DNA of 20,000 nucleotides from an uncultured virus (IMG/VR IMGVR_UViG_3300025018_003789) (Duplodnaviria; Heunggongvirae; Uroviricota; Caudoviricetes): IMG/VR virus record IMGVR_UViG_3300025018_003789. One strand, 5' to 3'. Shown one piece after another: positions 11,864 to 18,941 of this stretch; within the stretch, counting starts at the first letter, position 1, and each line of letters opens with the position of its first letter. Below the pieces are notes generated by a model. That model ran no database searches, was not told the DNA's origin, and was given only the letters and a program-made list of their open reading frames with translations. The translations under genes were made by a program, and so were the position numbers.

Positions 11864-12116
11864 GGTGTTTTCAACAGTTGGCTGAAAATCTACAAAAAAC
11901 TATAAATAATTACAAAATTCGATAACCAAGAATCAGTAATAATAAAAGTTTTTTATAGAAAAATAGAAAGAAGATACCGTAAGTTCTACGGAAATTAAAG
12001 TCTGTGGAGAGAATGTAAGTCAAATAATATCAATTTATTAATATTATTTGCTATCTTGATGAAGCAGAAAGTGAACAGAGAATCTTTTGTAGATTTTTGT
12101 AAGTTTCACAGAACGG
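11864..12116 (+). mobile_element. non-autonomous IS607-like mini-element with TnpB omegaRNA-like scaffold and no ORF
   Basis: Left end CAGTTGGCTGAAAATCTACAAAAAACTA and right end TTTGTAGATTTTTGTAAGTTTCACAGAACGG match the ends of the 13594-14859 element. Left boundary uncertain by a few nt. Confidence 0.75.
11975..12116 (+). ncRNA. putative omegaRNA (reRNA) scaffold
   Basis: CCGTA-AGTTC-TACGG hairpin, TCTGTGGAGA...GTAAG, 10-bp stem CAAATAATAT/ATATTATTTG, TGAAGCAGAA; colinear with 14699-14859. Confidence 0.65.
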
Positions 12117-12635
12117 TTATGTTGATGGGGATTATGAAGGTACAATTCGTAATTTCGGAAAGAACATAGCAACTATCGCAGAAAAAATCAACAGAACACC
12201 AAGAGCTATTTGTGATAAAATGGCAGAGCGTTATTCAGAAAGAGAAATTAGATCTTTCGAGAATGTTTATGAAGGTGAAGAATCAGCATCAGAGCGTGTC
12301 TTCAGCACTCTTCATCGTTCTGTAGAGCACAAGTTGTATAAGTTGTATCAAAGTAGCGAAGATAAGAGTTTGAATCGTGCCTTTTCGAAGAGAATTGATT
12401 CTACTGTTTCTCCGATGAAAAACATTAATAGTTTCATCGAAAAGGAAGTTAACCGTAAGACCACAACTAAACTTCCAAAAGAAACTGTTTCTCAAATCAA
12501 GAGTTCGTGGGAAATTTCAAGAACACCAAAGATTTCTTCCGTAACTTCTCGTGTTTTAACTTCAGTTGCTCAACATTCAACCTCTCTAAGTGCATATAGA
12601 AAAAGATAAAATCTTTTTAAATTGCTATTGATGCG

Positions 12636-12669
12636 AAGGGAGCTATTTTATTATAGCTCCCTTTTGTTT
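12636..12669 (+). terminator. intrinsic terminator
   Basis: 11-bp perfect stem AAGGGAGCTAT/ATAGCTCCCTT followed by TTGTTT, just downstream of the 12609 stop. Confidence 0.8.
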
Positions 12670-12694
12670 AATTTGATGAATCGAGGTAAGGCAT

Positions 12695-13210
12695 TTGGAT
12701 AAAATCAAGTCTAATGGACAAAAAGAATTCAATAAAAAAAGATATGATAAACACAATTCTGAATCTAAAAGAAAATTCAAACTTCTTTCGGATCTATTAA
12801 GGACGGAATACCGAGACTGCGAAGAAAATTTCAAGTATGATGGGTTGTGGAAGCCTAAAGACAAATTCATAAAAATAGAATTTGAAGATAGAAGAGAAAA
12901 GAATTTTGATGGTCTGAGGGATGGAGATTATCCATACAGTAATGGATATAGTATTTTAGAGAGAAAACTTAAAGACGATAAAAATAAATCATCTCTTTTT
13001 GTTATTACAAAACAAGGCTGTGATACTGAATTTGGTTTCATTAACTTTGCCCTCGCTAGAAAATTATACAAAGAACATAAACTAGAATCTGAAGCCTTTC
13101 AAGCCAGAGATACAGACAAGCCTGAGAAAAGATTCTTATTTCCAATTGATTTATGCACTTTCATAAAAGTAAACTTCAAAACAGGAAAGATAGTTAAGAA
13201 TGGAAAGTAA
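12695..13210 (+). CDS. hypothetical protein, possible PD-(D/E)XK endonuclease fold
   Basis: TTG start after GAGGTAAGG; YDGLW....IKIEFEDR resembles a D...E-x-E nuclease core; weak. Confidence 0.5.
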   Translation: MDKIKSNGQKEFNKKRYDKHNSESKRKFKLLSDLLRTEYRDCEENFKYDGLWKPKDKFIKIEFEDRREKNFDGLRDGDYPYSNGYSILERKLKDDKNKSSLFVITKQGCDTEFGFINFALARKLYKEHKLESEAFQARDTDKPEKRFLFPIDLCTFIKVNFKTGKIVKNGK

Positions 13211-13511
13211 TGTTTTGGCCAAAACCCTTGACAAGGTTGAATTGCCGTTGCACTATTCCCCAGAGTTTGGACATTATACATATTATGAAAATGTCCTATA
13301 CTACTACAAGACAGGAAGAAAGTTGCCCAAAAAGGGAATTCGCTGTATGCGAGAAAACTGTCTTCCAAATAGAAAGAAAAAGGTTAAGAGAATTTCCGTC
13401 ATCTTCGATGGGGAAAATCTTCTTTTAATAGATTCTGAAGTAAAGAATACAAGACTGACACGTGGTAAGTTTCGGGGCTTGTCGCATGAGGAGGTTTTAA
13501 ATGGAGGTTGA
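13200..13511 (+). CDS. hypothetical basic protein
   Basis: 103-aa ORF overlapping both neighbours by 11 nt. Confidence 0.5.
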   Translation: MESNVLAKTLDKVELPLHYSPEFGHYTYYENVLYYYKTGRKLPKKGIRCMRENCLPNRKKKVKRISVIFDGENLLLIDSEVKNTRLTRGKFRGLSHEEVLNGG

Positions 13512-13686
13512 TTATGAACTTGAAGTCGTCCTATATGCTTGTGCATCCATCAATCTTAGATGTGAGTCTTTAGAATATGAATTCCATCTAGGGTAATGAC
13601 CGTTGACTAAAAATCTACAAAAAACTACAAAAAAGTGAAAAAATATGGAAGAAAAACAAAAGGTCAAAATCGTATAAGAATAAATT

Positions 13687-13821
13687 ATGAAAATAAAAGG
13701 TTACAAAGTTGAACTGAAACTCAACAATAAGCAAAGAACTATGCTCCTGCAACATGCAGGAGCAGCCAGATTCACTTATAATTGGGGACTTTCAAAACGA
13801 ATTGACCTAAGAATTTTGTGA
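13687..13821 (+). pseudogene. tnpB: tnpB N-terminal fragment (HTH_OrfB_IS605-like)
   Basis: MKIKGYKVELKLNNKQRTMLLQHAGAARFTYNWGL, a typical TnpB N-terminus; truncated after 44 codons. Confidence 0.85.
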
Positions 13822-13830
13822 ATAAATAAT

Positions 13831-14565
13831 ATGGGAAGACTTTGCAGTATGGAAAATAAAGTTTACATATATGGTCTAAAATGTCCCGAAAAAAGGATTA
13901 TTAGATATATTGGGAAAAGTAAGAAACCTAAATCAAGATATTCATCACATTTAAGTCACACAAAAGCAAAAAGGTATGATAATATTCATTTATACCGATG
14001 GATTGCGAAGCTTTTAAGAGATGACTTAAAACCCGAATTGATTATATTGGATAGTTGCAGTGATGAAGATTGGAAGAAAAAAGAAAAGGAATGGATTGCT
14101 AAAATAGGATTGAAAAATTTGCTTAATATGAATGAGGGTGGTATTGAACCACCAGATAATACGGGTTTTAAATGGACTGATGAACAAAAAGCGAATCATC
14201 CATCACATAAGAGAAAAGGCAAACCTCAATGGATCAATATTCCACATCCGATGACGGGAAAAATTGGGAAAGATAATCCTAATTATGGGCAAAAGCGTTC
14301 TAAAGAATTTTGTGAGTTAATGCGAAAACAAAGGTTAGAAAACAATGGAATGAAAGGCGTAAAGCTTTCAAAAGAGAGAGTCGAGCAGATAAAAAAACGT
14401 GTTAGAAAACCAGTAGCAATGATTGATGGTAATGGAAATATATTAAAAGAGTATAAATCACAAAAAGAAGCAACAATTGAATTGGGTTTAACTCAAGGTG
14501 CGGTGGCAAGAGTGTGTAGTGGAGAATATAAACAAACAAAAGGATATAAATTTAAATACTTATAA
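13831..14565 (+). CDS. GIY-YIG homing endonuclease with NUMOD3-like repeats and C-terminal NUMOD1-like HTH
   Basis: VYIYGL...RYIGKS.....RY..H...E..WI....LLN; NPNYGQKRSKE and NGMKGVKLSKE; KPVAMID..GNILKEYKS.KEA...LG......RVC.G..K...GYKFKY. Alternative start 13849. Confidence 0.9.
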   Translation: MGRLCSMENKVYIYGLKCPEKRIIRYIGKSKKPKSRYSSHLSHTKAKRYDNIHLYRWIAKLLRDDLKPELIILDSCSDEDWKKKEKEWIAKIGLKNLLNMNEGGIEPPDNTGFKWTDEQKANHPSHKRKGKPQWINIPHPMTGKIGKDNPNYGQKRSKEFCELMRKQRLENNGMKGVKLSKERVEQIKKRVRKPVAMIDGNGNILKEYKSQKEATIELGLTQGAVARVCSGEYKQTKGYKFKYL

Positions 14566-14566
14566 A

Positions 14567-14755
14567 AATTCCAGTAAGACCTGTTCTAATTGTGGTGCTA
14601 TTAAAAGAGATTTGAGTTTAGGTGATCGTCAATATAATTGTGAGGTGTGTGACTTTAGCATTGACAGGGACGAGAATGCAGCTATAGTCTTGATGAAAGC
14701 CGCAAGTTCTGCGGTGTTAGCCTGTGGAGATATTGTAAGCCCTCAAAGCGCTTAG
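14567..14755 (+). pseudogene. tnpB: tnpB C-terminal fragment (Zn ribbon + RuvC-III)
   Basis: SSKTCSNCG....LSL.DR.YNCEVC...IDRDENAA. Confidence 0.88.
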
Positions 14756-14859
14756 TGCGCTTTGCGGCTGTATCGTTGAAGCAGGAATTAGATTGAGAAT
14801 TTGGTGTTATCCGAAGGATTGAACTTCGTTACCAGATTTTTGTAGATTCTAAGGAACGG
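14699..14859 (+). ncRNA. putative omegaRNA (reRNA) scaffold overlapping the tnpB 3' end
   Basis: CCGCA-AGTTC-TGCGG hairpin, CCTGTGGAGA...GTAAG, stem CAAAGCGC/GCGCTTTG, TGAAGCAGGA, running to the right end. Confidence 0.65.
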
Positions 14860-15192
14860 TATGGCGTGCTAGAAGACATGTATGATAAATTAAGAGTTCG
14901 AGAAGACGTTGAAACACTGACCCTCTCTTTTCCAGAAAGATTTTTAAACATAACAGAGAGAAGAATTCTACTAAAAAAAATAAGTCATTTTTGTCCAAAT
15001 GTAAAAAAAGTAACAATTAAAACTCACTGCCCGATGGTAGTTCAGCAATGTCCAAATGGTTCAGTGTCGGTTTTCAATCAAGGTCCGAAAGATTCTGGAG
15101 ATATCCATAAAAGGCACTATCCCACAGAAGAACAACTTAATTATTTTGACGTAAAAAAACTAAATGTAATTTAAAAGAAAAGAGAAAGTCAA

Positions 15193-18100
15193 ATGGAACA
15201 GGTTACCGACAAAGTTTACCGCTGGGGTGATCACGATGAGACTGCTATTCAGCAAATCATGAAGTGTACTTATGATGGACGTGCTGTTGCAGGTGCATTG
15301 ATGGCTGATGGTCACATGGGCTATTCTATGCCTATCGGAGGCGTTGTAGGTTACAAGAACCTTGTATCTCCTTCTGGCGTTGGATTCGATATCGCATGTA
15401 TTGCTGAAGGGACAGAAATAACTACTGGTTCTGGAGAGATTATAAAGATTGAAGACATTACAAAAGACCATAAGGGTCTTACGATGAAACTGTCTGGTTC
15501 TCTTGTAGAAACCAATATTACCGGAATTAAAAGCAAAGAAGTTGAAGAGATTTTGGAAATAGAATTAGAAAATGGAGATGTTTTACGTTTGACAGAAGAC
15601 CATCTTCTCCTTACTCAAGAACATGGATGTGAGTCTTGGTGGGAGGCAGGGAAGTTATCAATAGGAGACAAAATAATTGTGTCCCCTTATAAAGGAGTGC
15701 AAGGGGCTTCTACAAAACACCCTGTTTTCATGAGGCTTCTTGGGTATCTGATGGGAGACGGCCACCTTCCATCAAATGGTTGTAGATCGTCCTTCTATTC
15801 TTCCATAGATGAAGATGCTGATTTAATTAAAAAAGACATAGAAATATATTCTGATTATATTCATCAACAATTCGAAATCCAAAAATCTCAATCTGCAAAT
15901 CCAGAATCTATCTCATCAATTGACCCCGTTAACGTTAGAATTTTCCGAAGAGACAGAAAAACTATTACCGGAAAAGATACAAGGGAAAATTGTGTTTATT
16001 TTTCATCGGAGTGGATCAGAAGGGAATTTGAACTTTATGGATGTCCTTCTGGAAAGAAAAATTTTGATATATCAAGACTTCATGAAGTCTTTTCTGATCT
16101 TTCATTAGTAGATAAGGCCAATTTTATTAATGGACTTTTGGGAGCAGAAGCAGGTTGCCCAAAAATTGGGAAAAATAATGTCTTCAATCCTTGGATTAAG
16201 ATGGGCGGTATAAATGGGAAAGATTTATTGGAATTTATTTCTTCTCTACTCGATGAATTTGGCTTTGAATCGCACATTACTCTTTCTACAGAAGAAGAGG
16301 ATGGGAAAGGGGCTACATATGTTCTCCAAATCGTTGGAGGAATGGACGAATTTGAAAGGTTTTACAGAACCTTTAAGTTTTTCTATTCTGGTTACAAGGA
16401 AATAGAAAAGGCAAAAGTTCTTTCTTATATTTGGAACAAAAAACAAATAATTAATAAGAAAATCGCCGCCAGAGAACTTTGCAGGGTTCTTAGATCGCAA
16501 GGTCATAAAGTTCATTTTTTACATGAAGAAGCCTCTCGAATTCTTGGGTACGAAGTCAATAAACGTTTTGCCCTTAGATCAATTTACGAAGATTGTGATT
16601 CTCCAAGAATCAGCACAGAACAGCCCGTTATCGATACTATTAATGAATGTGTTTTTGTCAAAATTGTATCAATAAATAAAATTAAAGAAAAAACTAAAGT
16701 CTATGACATTGGTATTGCTCACGAAGATCATAATTTTATTGCTAATGGAATTATTGTGCATAACTGCGGAAATAAAGCAGTTCGTTTAAATGTCAAAGGT
16801 AAAGACATCAAAAAAGACATCAAAAAAGACATTAAAAAAATTATGGATCAAGTCTTCAAGACCATTTCTTTTGGTGTTGGACGAAACAATAACGAAAAGG
16901 TTGAGCACTCTCTCTTTGAAGATGAAACATGGAAGTTGCCATGCATTAAAGAAATTGCTCGTGGTAAAAATCCTATTGCATTGAAAGATTTAGCCGCTAA
17001 CCAATTAGGAACTGTTGGCTCTGGGAATCACTACGTCGATTTATTTGTAGACGAAAATGATGATGTTTGGATTGGTGTCCACTTTGGTTCTCGTGGATTG
17101 GGTCACAAAACGGCAACATATTTTTTAAATAAAGCCGGAGGAAAAGATGATATAAATGCTTATCCCACTTTAATTGAGGCTGATAGTGAATTAGGCATCG
17201 ATTATATTGCTTGTATGAATTTGGCTGGACGATATGCATATGCTGGTAGAGACTGGGTTTGTGATCGTGTGGCTAAAATTCTTCATGCAAAAATTGTAGA
17301 AGAAATCCATAACCATCATAATTTTTGCATTCCTGCGACAGAAAAAATTCCAACTCCTTTGGGATGGAAAACAATTGATAAATTAGAAATAGGTGAAACA
17401 GTTTATGGCTTCGATAAAGATTTTGGTTTGTATGAAACAAAAATAAAAAACAAATGGAATAATGGAAAAAAAGAAATCTATACAATAGGAACCAAAAATA
17501 GAAAAATAAGATGTTCTGGTGATCATCCTATATTAGTTATAGAAATTCAAGAAAAACCACATCCAGAAAGAAAATGGCATAAAAAAAATACTGGAAATTA
17601 TTTATGGAAAAAAGCAAGTGAATTAAAAATTAAAGATATAGTTGTATGCGCTGAAAGTTACTATCCTAGTTCGGAGTTAAATGATTTTGGTTTACATAAA
17701 GCTAGACTTTTGGGAGCTTTTATTGGAGATGGTTGGGTTCGACAAGATCCCACTATAAGTGGATATTCTATTGGATTGGCTATTGGTGGTAAGGAAGAAA
17801 AGGTAACAGAAGAATACTTAAATATTCTTAAAAAAGTATTTCCTGAAGCCGATTGGAAAAATAATAAAAAGGTGCTTTTGGGCTAACGGCATCATGTAAA
17901 TTTATATATGAAAAGCTAAAAAAATGGAATATTCATCAAAAATCAAAAAAAAGAAGATTCCCAAGTTATGTTTTCAATTTAAGCCATGAAGAAAAAATAC
18001 ATTTTTTATCTGGATATGTTGATGCTGATGGGCACGTCCATAAGGAAGATGGCAAAAAAAATCATGGAAGAACTAAAATTTGCTCTACAAACAAATTGCT

Positions 18101-18941
18101 TGTAGAAGATTTGAGGGAACTGTGTATTGGAATCGGAATGTGTCCAACAAATATATCAAAACAGATTTGTAGTTCTAATTTTTTGGAAGAATATATTGCA
18201 TTTTCTTTTTACTTAAATCCAAATGATACATCGAAACTTATTTTACTGCATGAAGAAAAAAATAAAAATCAAAGAAATACAATTTGTGAAAGGTCAAGAC
18301 TACAATCTTCTAAAGTAGGATATTTGGAATTTCCTGATGGTTTTTTTGGACAATACATTTGCTCAATAGAAATCTCAGAAGATGAAGAAGATGTTTTTGA
18401 TATAGAAGTAGAAAACGACAATCATAATTTTATTTGTGAAGGAATTGTTGTTCATAATTGTTGGGAAGAAGAACATAACGGCGAAAAGTTATGGGTGGTT
18501 AGAAAAGGCGCAACTCCTGCATTTCCTGGGCAAAAAGGATTTGTTGGTGGATCTATGGGCGATGACTCAGTTATTCTTGAGGGTGTTGAACATGAAGATT
18601 CAGCCAAAGGTCTTTATTCTACTGTTCATGGCGCTGGACGTGTCCTTGGAAGAATGCAAGCGAAAGGTAAGTTTAAGGCAATAAAAGATGCTTCCAATCA
18701 AAAGACTGGTGAGTATGAATGTGTTCGTGAACCTCTTGTGAAAAAAGAGGACATGAAAAAATGGATCGAAGAAAAAGGAGTCGAACTTCGTGGCGCTGAT
18801 GTCGATGAGTCTCCTCAGTGTTACAAGAGATTGAATGAAGTTTTAGACTATCATTCTAATACGATCAAAATCCTTCATACCTTAACACCTATTGGAGTGG
18901 CAATGGCAGGAAATGAAGTCAGAGACCCATATAAAGACTAG
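15193..18941 (+). CDS. rtcB: RtcB RNA ligase (about 415-aa extein) with two inteins; 1-nt frameshift at A5 17866-17870 inside intein 2
   Basis: MADGHMGYSMPIGGV, GVGFDIA|CG, QLGTVGSGNHY, HFGSRGLG, HNHHNF|CW, VRKGATPA, GGSMG, STVHGAGR, DESPQCYK. Confidence 0.93.
15397..16764 (+). mobile_element. intein 1 in RtcB (456 aa) with LAGLIDADG endonuclease
   Basis: Starts CIAEGTEI; block B LRLTEDH; LLGYLMGDG and FINGLLGAEAG; ends VYDI...HNFIANGIIVHN/C. Confidence 0.93.
16801..16836 (+). repeat. 12-bp tandem repeat x3 (KDIK)
   Basis: AAAGACATCAAA AAAGACATCAAA AAAGACATTAAA. Confidence 0.85.
17326..18458 (+). mobile_element. intein 2 in RtcB (about 378 aa) with LAGLIDADG endonuclease, frameshifted
   Basis: Starts CIPATEKI; IRCSGDHP; LLGAFIGDG; after the shift FLSGYVDADG; ends VFDIEV...HNFICEGIVVHN/C. 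Span is 1133 nt, one short of a multiple of 3. Confidence 0.9.

Follow-up and report, generated by a model that had tools for sequence, protein, structure and literature searches.

The 20,000-nt stretch of DNA considered here, from an uncultured Caudoviricetes virus (IMG/VR record IMGVR_UViG_3300025018_003789) and hereafter called the window, contains what is probably a non-autonomous IS605-family transposon, inserted in a small open reading frame (ORF) of a probable large phage and carrying a GIY-YIG homing endonuclease gene (HEG) between two fragments of tnpB. From comparison of the related loci, the gene appears to be a member of a free-standing HEG family that lives in tnpB, immediately 5′ of the first Zn-knuckle codons (S)SKTCxxCG, and we hold with moderate confidence that this most conserved stretch of tnpB is both the niche of the family and its probable target. 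The HEG is best read as a parasite of the transposon, exploiting a multi-copy and horizontally mobile target, and not as a substitute for TnpB. The TnpB protein is the ancestor of Cas12 and its genes are among the most abundant in prokaryotes, while the transposons that carry it are usually regarded as the bottom of the parasitic hierarchy. If our reading is true, a HEG family residing at one fixed position of tnpB would be a second-order parasite, and RNA-guided and protein-guided homing nucleases would compete for the same vehicle.

The window element consists of a left end (LE), the two extremities of tnpB with the HEG between them, a structured 3′ RNA region and a right end (RE); the coordinates are collected in Table 1. 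The 44-amino-acid ORF following the LE matches positions 1-40 of HTH_OrfB_IS605 in Pfam (E = 5e-14), and the frame 14498-14755 matches the Cas12f1-like TNB Zn ribbon at profile positions 25-59 of 60 (3e-11). In an alignment with seven full-length viral TnpBs of 373-412 amino acids, the N-terminal fragment corresponds to residues 1 to approximately 41, and the C-terminal fragment begins at S317 of the TnpB of locus L019, in the motif SSKTCSNCG, from where it continues, with the second Zn knuckle and the DRD of RuvC-III included, as far as the natural stop. Approximately 275 codons (about 42 to 316), RuvC-I and RuvC-II among them, are absent. No complete TnpB is present at the element, the OrfB_IS605 core being unmatched in Pfam, and because the RuvC-I/II core is missing, the TnpB nuclease cannot be made from it. 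No TnpA (Y1 transposase) is found by Pfam across the 20-kb window. The HEG stop codon ends at 14565 and tnpB homology restarts around position 14570, i.e. some 5 nt further on. An earlier note, made from the letters of the stretch alone, had described the tnpB N-terminus at the left, the Zn ribbon and RuvC-III within a few nucleotides of the HEG stop, the retention of the ends and of a guide-RNA scaffold, and a replacement of the tnpB core rather than a plain insertion, and in all these respects its description is borne out, with LE and RE common to other copies and the 3′ region structured.

Searches with the HEG returned 19 locus identifiers (L001-L006, L099-L108 and L110-L112, of which L112 is the same contig stretch as L001), and the family comprises at least 48 clusters at 90% identity in public data (E ≤ 1e-20). 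Ten loci on metagenome or metagenome-assembled genome (MAG) contigs are close relatives with at least 59% identity (L099-L106, L110 and L111; L106 by its C-terminal half, at 68%), the MAG contigs of L110 and L111 being assigned to Woesearchaeota and Flavobacteriales, respectively. In all ten, the HEG stop is followed at a distance of 1-8 nt by a C-terminal piece of tnpB in the same orientation, which begins at TnpB residues 315-319 in the motif (S)SKTCxxCG, and the HEG-linked loci keep zero to two Ser codons of tnpB before the Lys codon. As a control, the breakpoints of three truncated tnpB copies that lack the HEG but adjoin an omegaRNA of the same family are elsewhere, at residues 343, 324 and 265, and the break in an ORF-less mini copy of the element, present in the same window and described below, lies later still. 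No tnpB part is found near the seven distant relatives (≤44% identity), and a scan of IMG/VR with the HEG alignment returned L001 again and nothing else. In L001 the 5′ end of the gene abuts the same tnpB motif on the opposite strand, only the DNA-binding half being highly identical, and protein P0043 represents a second, diverged case of this inverted arrangement. The N-terminal extension of P0043 is, as in L001, an antisense reading of the tnpB Zn ribbon, and P0046 starts with 16 residues of the window-type HEG, followed by an L001-type catalytic domain, and is fused to a tnpB tail. Domain swapping seems to be frequent in the HEG family.

The sequences upstream of the HEG vary from locus to locus. 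The window has the LE and the tnpB N-terminal fragment; L099 and L100 have a divergent tnpA; L106 has tnpA and a 47-codon N-terminal tnpB fragment and is thereby a second "sandwich"; in L102, L104 and L111 a ribbon-helix-helix (RHH)/Arc-like gene overlaps the HEG start; L105 has a full tnpB and L110 a methylase fragment. The Y1_Tnp domain is recognised by Pfam in L099, L100 and L106, an ORF of L111 is TnpA-like by eye only, and a small ORF before tnpA in L106 looks RHH-like by eye, without a Pfam match. The earlier note had asked for further sandwiches at other sites and had feared a one-off decayed copy; L106 supplies the former, and the ten relatives with the same fixed junction in unrelated flanks, together with the purifying selection on the HEG described below, dispel the latter.

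Three of these loci show additional peculiarities. At 1356-3462 of L105, a complete tnpB (369 amino acids, with the three RuvC motifs) is followed by the HEG cassette and then by a second, approximately 60% identical Zn-ribbon/RuvC-III segment and RNA region; here the HEG appears to ride along without destroying TnpB. At 1-354 of L103, a target-like remnant and the usual HEG 5′ leader are followed by an extra 103-amino-acid ORF of unknown family, which sits at the normal start position of the HEG, and the HEG itself comes after it. The 2.25-kb contig of L111 ends with a second tnpB Zn-ribbon-like match (2179-2253), which lies approximately 800 nt further downstream than the first one and is preceded by an ORF with many CxxC pairs; this match may belong to an adjacent second element.

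The position of the junction within tnpB points to its recognition by the endonuclease. The consensus of 80 intact tnpB genes at the junction, TATCCnTCnAGTAAaACnTGtTCnAAtTGTGG, is the most conserved stretch of the alignment, and the tnpB consensus TATCCnTCnAGTAAAACnTGTTCnAATTGTGG was taken as the candidate target of the HEG. A second copy of the core, AAAACTTGTnnnnnTTGTGG, precedes the HEG start by 25-45 nt in L099, L100, L101, L105 and L110 and fits the high-information positions of the 80-gene consensus. In L103 it lies approximately 345 nt upstream, the larger distance being due to the intervening extra ORF, and the window keeps only a degenerate remnant, ...TTGTGAATAA..., at the 5′ edge of the cassette. 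According to PMC2988022, I-TevI represses its own expression by binding to an operator similar to its homing site. By analogy, the upstream core may be an operator like that of I-TevI or else a scar of the first insertion, and since either reading leads to the same codons, KTCxxCG is likely the recognition sequence of the HEG.

The HEG and its flanks also appear to have had different histories. The window and L099 are 82% identical at the nucleotide level from about -735 to +46 relative to the HEG stop, and beyond these limits the flanks are unrelated. The 250-nt tnpB-C/RNA/RE flanks of L099 and L103 are 87-95% identical, with a synonymous divergence (dS) of 0.34, as against a dS of 1.16 between their HEGs, and the grouping L099+L100+L103+L110 seen in the flanks is rejected on the HEG alignment by the approximately unbiased (AU) test (p-AU 2e-5). 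In addition, L103 is a mosaic in which a block of about 165 nt resembling L101 lies inside an L099-like backbone; the block spans the helix-turn-helix (HTH) codons, the junction and the first 20 or so nucleotides of the tnpB C-terminal fragment, including the variant KTCCECG. The mosaic fits co-conversion during homing and would also fit recombination among occupied copies. In L101 and L103 a variant HTH (…DASNVSRVCNGVF…) occurs together with KTCCECG instead of KTCSxCG (alignment A5, columns ~105-270), which could reflect linkage or protein and site changing together.

A plausible course of invasion would be the following. The transposon's own upstream signals would drive expression of the HEG, the C-terminal NUMOD/HTH domain of the product would bind tnpB DNA around the KTCxxCG codons, and the GIY-YIG domain, whose catalytic residues are conserved, would cut nearby in HEG-less tnpB copies. 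The break would then be repaired from a HEG-bearing copy, by which the cassette and a short flank would be copied into the cut tnpB; the mosaic copy and the discordant HEG and flank histories are the observations that bear on this step. The invaded element would lose TnpB and keep the LE, the RE and the omegaRNA region, and TnpA acting in trans could still move it, just as TnpB in trans could use its guide RNA.

The earlier note had offered two roles for the endonuclease, namely that it takes over the empty-site cutting of TnpB or that it hitchhikes on the transposon. The first role would be that of a composite transposon, in which a single ancient replacement joined IS605 ends, a GIY-YIG gene, a tnpB tail and the omegaRNA into a unit spread by TnpA, with the endonuclease serving in place of TnpB. 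Such a unit would agree with the purifying selection on the HEG, with the unrejected monophyly of the HEG-linked tnpB C-terminal fragments (p-AU 0.62), with the presence of tnpA, which adjoins the HEG in L099 and L100 and is also carried by L106 and L111, and with the approximately 250-nt 3′ end that L099, L100, L103 and L110 share in unrelated flanks, which means that HEG-bearing elements sit at different sites. However, the empty sites of the copies differ and a protein of fixed specificity could not recognise them all, the HEG and flank histories conflict, the same junction occurs inverted too, and the left junctions vary among loci while the right one is fixed. We therefore consider the composite transposon unlikely, and the copies in unrelated flanks do not support the takeover of empty-site cutting. 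The hitchhiking option fares better, as what stays the same throughout the family is the point at which the HEG meets tnpB, among the most conserved codons of that gene, and this constancy argues that the HEG lives in, and probably cuts, tnpB.

Several observations nevertheless weigh against a HEG that homes into tnpB. For the tnpB lineage of the window element itself, no allele free of the HEG was found, and hence there is no pair of occupied and empty sites. In a tree of the tnpB C-terminal fragments (48 residues, with 81 intact sequences), the HEG-linked ones fall in several positions with five changes of state; a single clade of all 11, however, is not rejected, and the tree constrained to it scored higher than the unconstrained one. 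As the intact sequences had been selected for resembling the window and the fragment comprises few residues, the AU test is weak in both directions, and the unrejected monophyly makes it possible that one ancient junction was followed by co-divergence and by recombination among HEG-bearing copies. The synonymous sites of the HEGs are saturated (dS 1.2-2.4), so that the unrelated flanks of the window and L099 are weak evidence alone and could reflect age. An upstream tnpB joined directly to the cassette, the product of a first invasion, is seen at no locus, and homing explains neither the shared N-terminal breakpoints (at about residue 41 in the window and about 47 in L106) nor the duplicated tnpB C-terminal segment in L105. 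According to PMC2988022, the cut made by a free-standing phage HEG often lies hundreds of bases away from the gene itself, and the junction therefore need not be the cut site. Finally, the HEG is present in none of the 80 best tnpB loci and none of the 47 omegaRNA loci of IMG/VR, which implies that invasion is rare there.

The protein itself has the features of an intact homing endonuclease. The 244-amino-acid ORF 13831-14565 matches GIY-YIG (PF01541, 6e-6), an I-HmuI NUMOD-like domain (3e-9) and, weakly, NUMOD3 in Pfam, and in a PDB profile search the family profile matches the I-TevI catalytic domain (1mk0/1ln0, residues 3-93, 1e-7) and the I-HmuI DNA-binding domain (1u3e, residues 92-171, 2e-8), so that both a GIY-YIG catalytic domain and a separate C-terminal DNA-binding module are present by profile match. 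The relatives begin with MENKVYIYG, which places the likely start at ATG 13849 and not at 13831; of the intact 244-amino-acid GIY-YIG-NUMOD ORF claimed earlier, the domains stand and the length is likely 238 amino acids. The residues G9, Y20, G22, R30, H34, N45 and E79, which we take to be the catalytic positions of I-TevI, are invariant in ten homologues. The ratio of nonsynonymous to synonymous divergence (dN/dS) is 0.05-0.16 in ten pairs, indicating strong purifying selection, and between the window and L099 HEGs dN is 0.071 and dS 1.39. Judged by sequence, the HEG is functional, and the inactive nuclease considered in the earlier note is not what these residues and this selection suggest.

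The tnpB tail downstream of the HEG could in principle have a function of its own, if it were translated as a Zn-ribbon/RuvC-III peptide of 60-85 residues or as a HEG fusion and worked with the HEG or the omegaRNA; it might then provide additional DNA or RNA binding, or else inhibit intact TnpB. In each of the six loci examined whose sequence reaches far enough, and in L110 as well, no stop interrupts the frame of the tail before the natural end of TnpB. A start codon overlapping the HEG stop is present in L099 and L105 (ATGA), L106 (GTGA) and L110, and in-frame HEG fusions exist in L100 (323 amino acids), P0030 and P0046. Against this, L104 and L111 have stops and lack a start just upstream, and the only candidate start in the window, a GTG within the HEG, 19 codons upstream, is not convincing; furthermore, L104 has lost the DRD motif as well as a residue of a Zn knuckle, and the first knuckle is missing from P0030. 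The dN/dS of the tail, 0.13-0.47 in nine computable pairs, would be in favour of its function, but values as low are equally expected if the flanks diverged within intact tnpB before invasion. A functional tail is in our view quite unlikely, and distinctly improbable is the further step in which the endonuclease, the tail and the omegaRNA would form a working three-part unit, with the tail linking the nuclease to guide RNA or TnpB complexes. If such a unit existed, it would be an RNA-assisted GIY-YIG nuclease, or else an anti-TnpB weapon that cuts tnpB and poisons TnpB ribonucleoproteins. A programmed frameshift fusing the HEG to the tail was ruled out, as the frame relation differs among loci.

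The integrity of the element is supported by independent assemblies. The stretch is present in 14 runs labelled aquifer metagenome, and the contigs of four of these (X1-X4) were compared. In X1, the probable source run, contigs cover 12089-13731 and 13702-14860 at matching depths of 16.2 and 16.8, and contigs of X2, X3 and X4 each run without a single difference across at least one of three junctions (host/LE, tnpB-N/HEG and HEG/tnpB-C), the host/LE junction being bridged in X1, X2 and X4 and the HEG/tnpB-C junction in X2 and X3. The RE/host junction at 14859/14860 is bridged by none of the listed contig pieces of these four runs; the X1 cover ends at 14984, and such gaps prove nothing. As the left and both inner junctions are bridged in three further runs, the element is not an assembly chimera, a possibility that the earlier note had raised. 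An accident of decay or assembly, in which a phage endonuclease landed once in a dead tnpB or unrelated contigs were joined, may draw on the abundance of free-standing endonuclease genes in phage genomes and on the two inteins in the RtcB gene of the window, but given the bridged junctions in X2, X3 and X4 as well as X1, the ten relatives with the same junction and the purifying selection on the HEG, it is very improbable. A 13.9-kb contig of X1 with a depth of 43 matches window positions 14699-14730, preceded by codons for ...LNAAINLKNM, an intact-type TnpB end, which indicates that intact relatives coexist in the same sample.

The 3′ region of the element appears to have retained the structured omegaRNA found at the 3′ end of tnpB. 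Positions 14700-14859 fold better than shuffled sequences (z -3.0), as does the corresponding region of the mini copy (z -2.6), and a consensus fold of the window 3′ region with mini-copy positions 11972-12117 contains 35 pairs, 9 of them compensatory and 0 broken. A sub-threshold match to RAGATH-18 (Rfam) is located at 14721-14787, and a similar one follows the intact tnpB of L019 at the corresponding position. The core pattern derived from the window copies, CTGTGGAGAnAnTGTAAG ... TGAAGCAG, was used to search IMG/VR and is found at 47 viral loci (L113-L159), which makes it a widespread omegaRNA-type family; 27 of the 47 have it immediately downstream of a full or near-full tnpB, about 11 loci with enough upstream sequence are mini elements without tnpB, and three have a truncated tnpB. 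RNAalifold recovers only 11 pairs from 18 sequences of the family, because the variable hairpins misalign. The ORFs upstream of 14 omegaRNA loci without tnpB include no nuclease at the junction; in two of these loci HNH genes are present farther away. The RE terminus GAACGG is common to related elements at L122, L123, L134 and L144, and this subgroup, ending in ...AGAACGG, fixes the right ends of the two window copies at 14859 and 12116, close to which the X1 contig graph breaks (12116-12118 and 14860-14861). At the other side, the LE boundary of the window element is resolved to 13591-13599 only. An 18-mer of the LE was found at 12 IMG/VR loci without further similarity, taken as chance matches.

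The mini copy, about 250 nt long and 1.7 kb upstream of the HEG-bearing element, had been overlooked in the earlier note. It carries no gene and consists of an LE, the first few tnpB codons, directly thereafter the 3′ structured region, and the RE; both ends are common to the window element, and LE positions 13599-13642 are 82% identical to 11874-11917. In X1 the part 11974-12116 has a depth of 107-153 compared with 16 for its surroundings, and one X1 contig carries a different sequence after 12116, from which it follows that the RNA/RE module is multi-copy in that community. We presume that the mini copy is akin to the PATE/MITE-like miniatures of IS200/IS605, since it, too, is multi-copy and has retained ends and RNA scaffold but no genes. 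The window element differs from these in carrying a gene and is therefore no simple deletion derivative.

Table 1. Positions of the window element, the mini copy and the probably interrupted host reading frame
Feature	Position	Strand	Basis
Mini copy without ORF (LE, omegaRNA scaffold, RE)	11864..12116	+	Repeat search; left boundary uncertain by ~8 nt
Split host (phage) ORF, 5′ part	13501..13593	+	Frame continuity
LE of the IS605-family element	13594..13686	+	Similarity to the mini copy; X1, X2 and X4 contigs across the host/LE junction
tnpB N-terminal fragment	13687..13821	+	Residues 1 to ~41, then 3 foreign codons and a stop; Pfam and alignment
5′ edge of the HEG cassette with degenerate target-like remnant	13805..13848	+	Homology to L099 from ~20-30 nt before the ATG
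GIY-YIG HEG	13849..14565	+	238 amino acids (244 if from ATG 13831); Pfam and PDB profile match
tnpB C-terminal fragment (Zn ribbon CxxC...CxxC, RuvC-III DRD, natural stop)	14567..14755	+	Pfam TNB
omegaRNA-like scaffold and RE	14700..14859	+	Fold and compensatory pairs; RE terminus ...GAACGG at 14859
Split host ORF, 3′ part	14860..15174	+	Frame continuity

Free-standing GIY-YIG endonucleases like Seg and I-TevI and TnpB elements of the IS605 family are each known, and their combination was not found in the literature searched. IS200/IS605 elements combine peel-and-paste transposition with retention by RNA-guided cut-and-copy. The window element resembles them in its LE and RE, its N- and C-terminal tnpB codons and its structured 3′ RNA, and its relatives likewise carry tnpA; it differs in lacking the RuvC-I/II core and tnpA and in having a protein-only nuclease gene in the slot. 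With I-TevI and the Seg proteins of T-even phages, the HEG shares an N-terminal GIY-YIG and a C-terminal NUMOD/HTH domain and a free-standing position, outside any intron, adjoining highly conserved coding sequence. The target-like sequence upstream of the gene's own start, similar to the I-TevI operator, and the mosaic, co-conversion-like tracts of the family are further likenesses to the phage enzymes (PMC2988022). In contrast to those, the gene in which the HEG resides and which it presumably targets is itself selfish, tnpB instead of a phage housekeeping gene, and is destroyed by the HEG instead of being left intact.

IStrons likewise unite a selfish element of the homing type with a transposon of the IS605 family (PMC3984707 and bioRxiv 10.1101/2023.11.20.567912), although the window element has no ribozyme match and its partner disrupts tnpB, whereas the IStron intron rescues the host gene. 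A cassette belonging to a group I intron, on the model of the IStrons, would accord with the JGI automatic name of several family members, "group I intron endonuclease", and with the pairing of group I introns and IS605 elements described in PMC3984707. However, no group I intron model of Rfam matches the window (E ≤ 1) or the 12 related loci searched, and with a cassette only about 45 nt longer than the ORF, an intron-borne endonuclease is extremely improbable.

The RHH genes overlapping the HEG start in L102, L104 and L111 are reminiscent of the Arc (RHH) repressor genes of IS605 elements, a gene type absent from the window copy. The closest published statement in the literature searched is a passing remark in a preprint (bioRxiv 10.64898/2026.09.24.754181) that such Arc homologues adjoin homing endonuclease genes as well; its accessible text does not describe an endonuclease inside tnpB. 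More generally, no description of a HEG within tnpB was found in the part of the openly accessible literature that was searched. A HEG family resident in tnpB, if true, would explain some of the associations of homing endonucleases with Arc/IS605 reported in the preprint. It would also predict a natural enzyme recognising approximately 30 bp of conserved tnpB, which could be used to inactivate or track tnpB elements, and one enzyme with one consensus target would make a simple system to test.

With regard to the host site, joining 13593 to 14860 restores a single open frame of 136 codons, which suggests that the element probably split a small host gene; the reconstituted empty site reads ...CATCTAGGG/TATGGCGTG..., the slash marking the point of joining. 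The mini copy probably also splits a host ORF (11844... and 12117/8-12609), which hinges on its uncertain left boundary. Homologue searches with the two split host ORFs gave one weak match and none, and so provided no confirmation of gene splitting. A DNA search of the phage GenBank collection gave only a weak 98-nt match, to the ISCaje3 tnpB of Campylobacter phages. The surroundings look like those of a large phage, the neighbouring genes encoding a DNA methylase, a tRNA nucleotidyltransferase, a CTP synthase and RtcB, and the HEG protein is also on record from a 182-kb contig. The RtcB RNA ligase gene (15175-18938) is interrupted by two inteins with LAGLIDADG domains, and with these and the two transposon copies the 20-kb window is dense in selfish elements.

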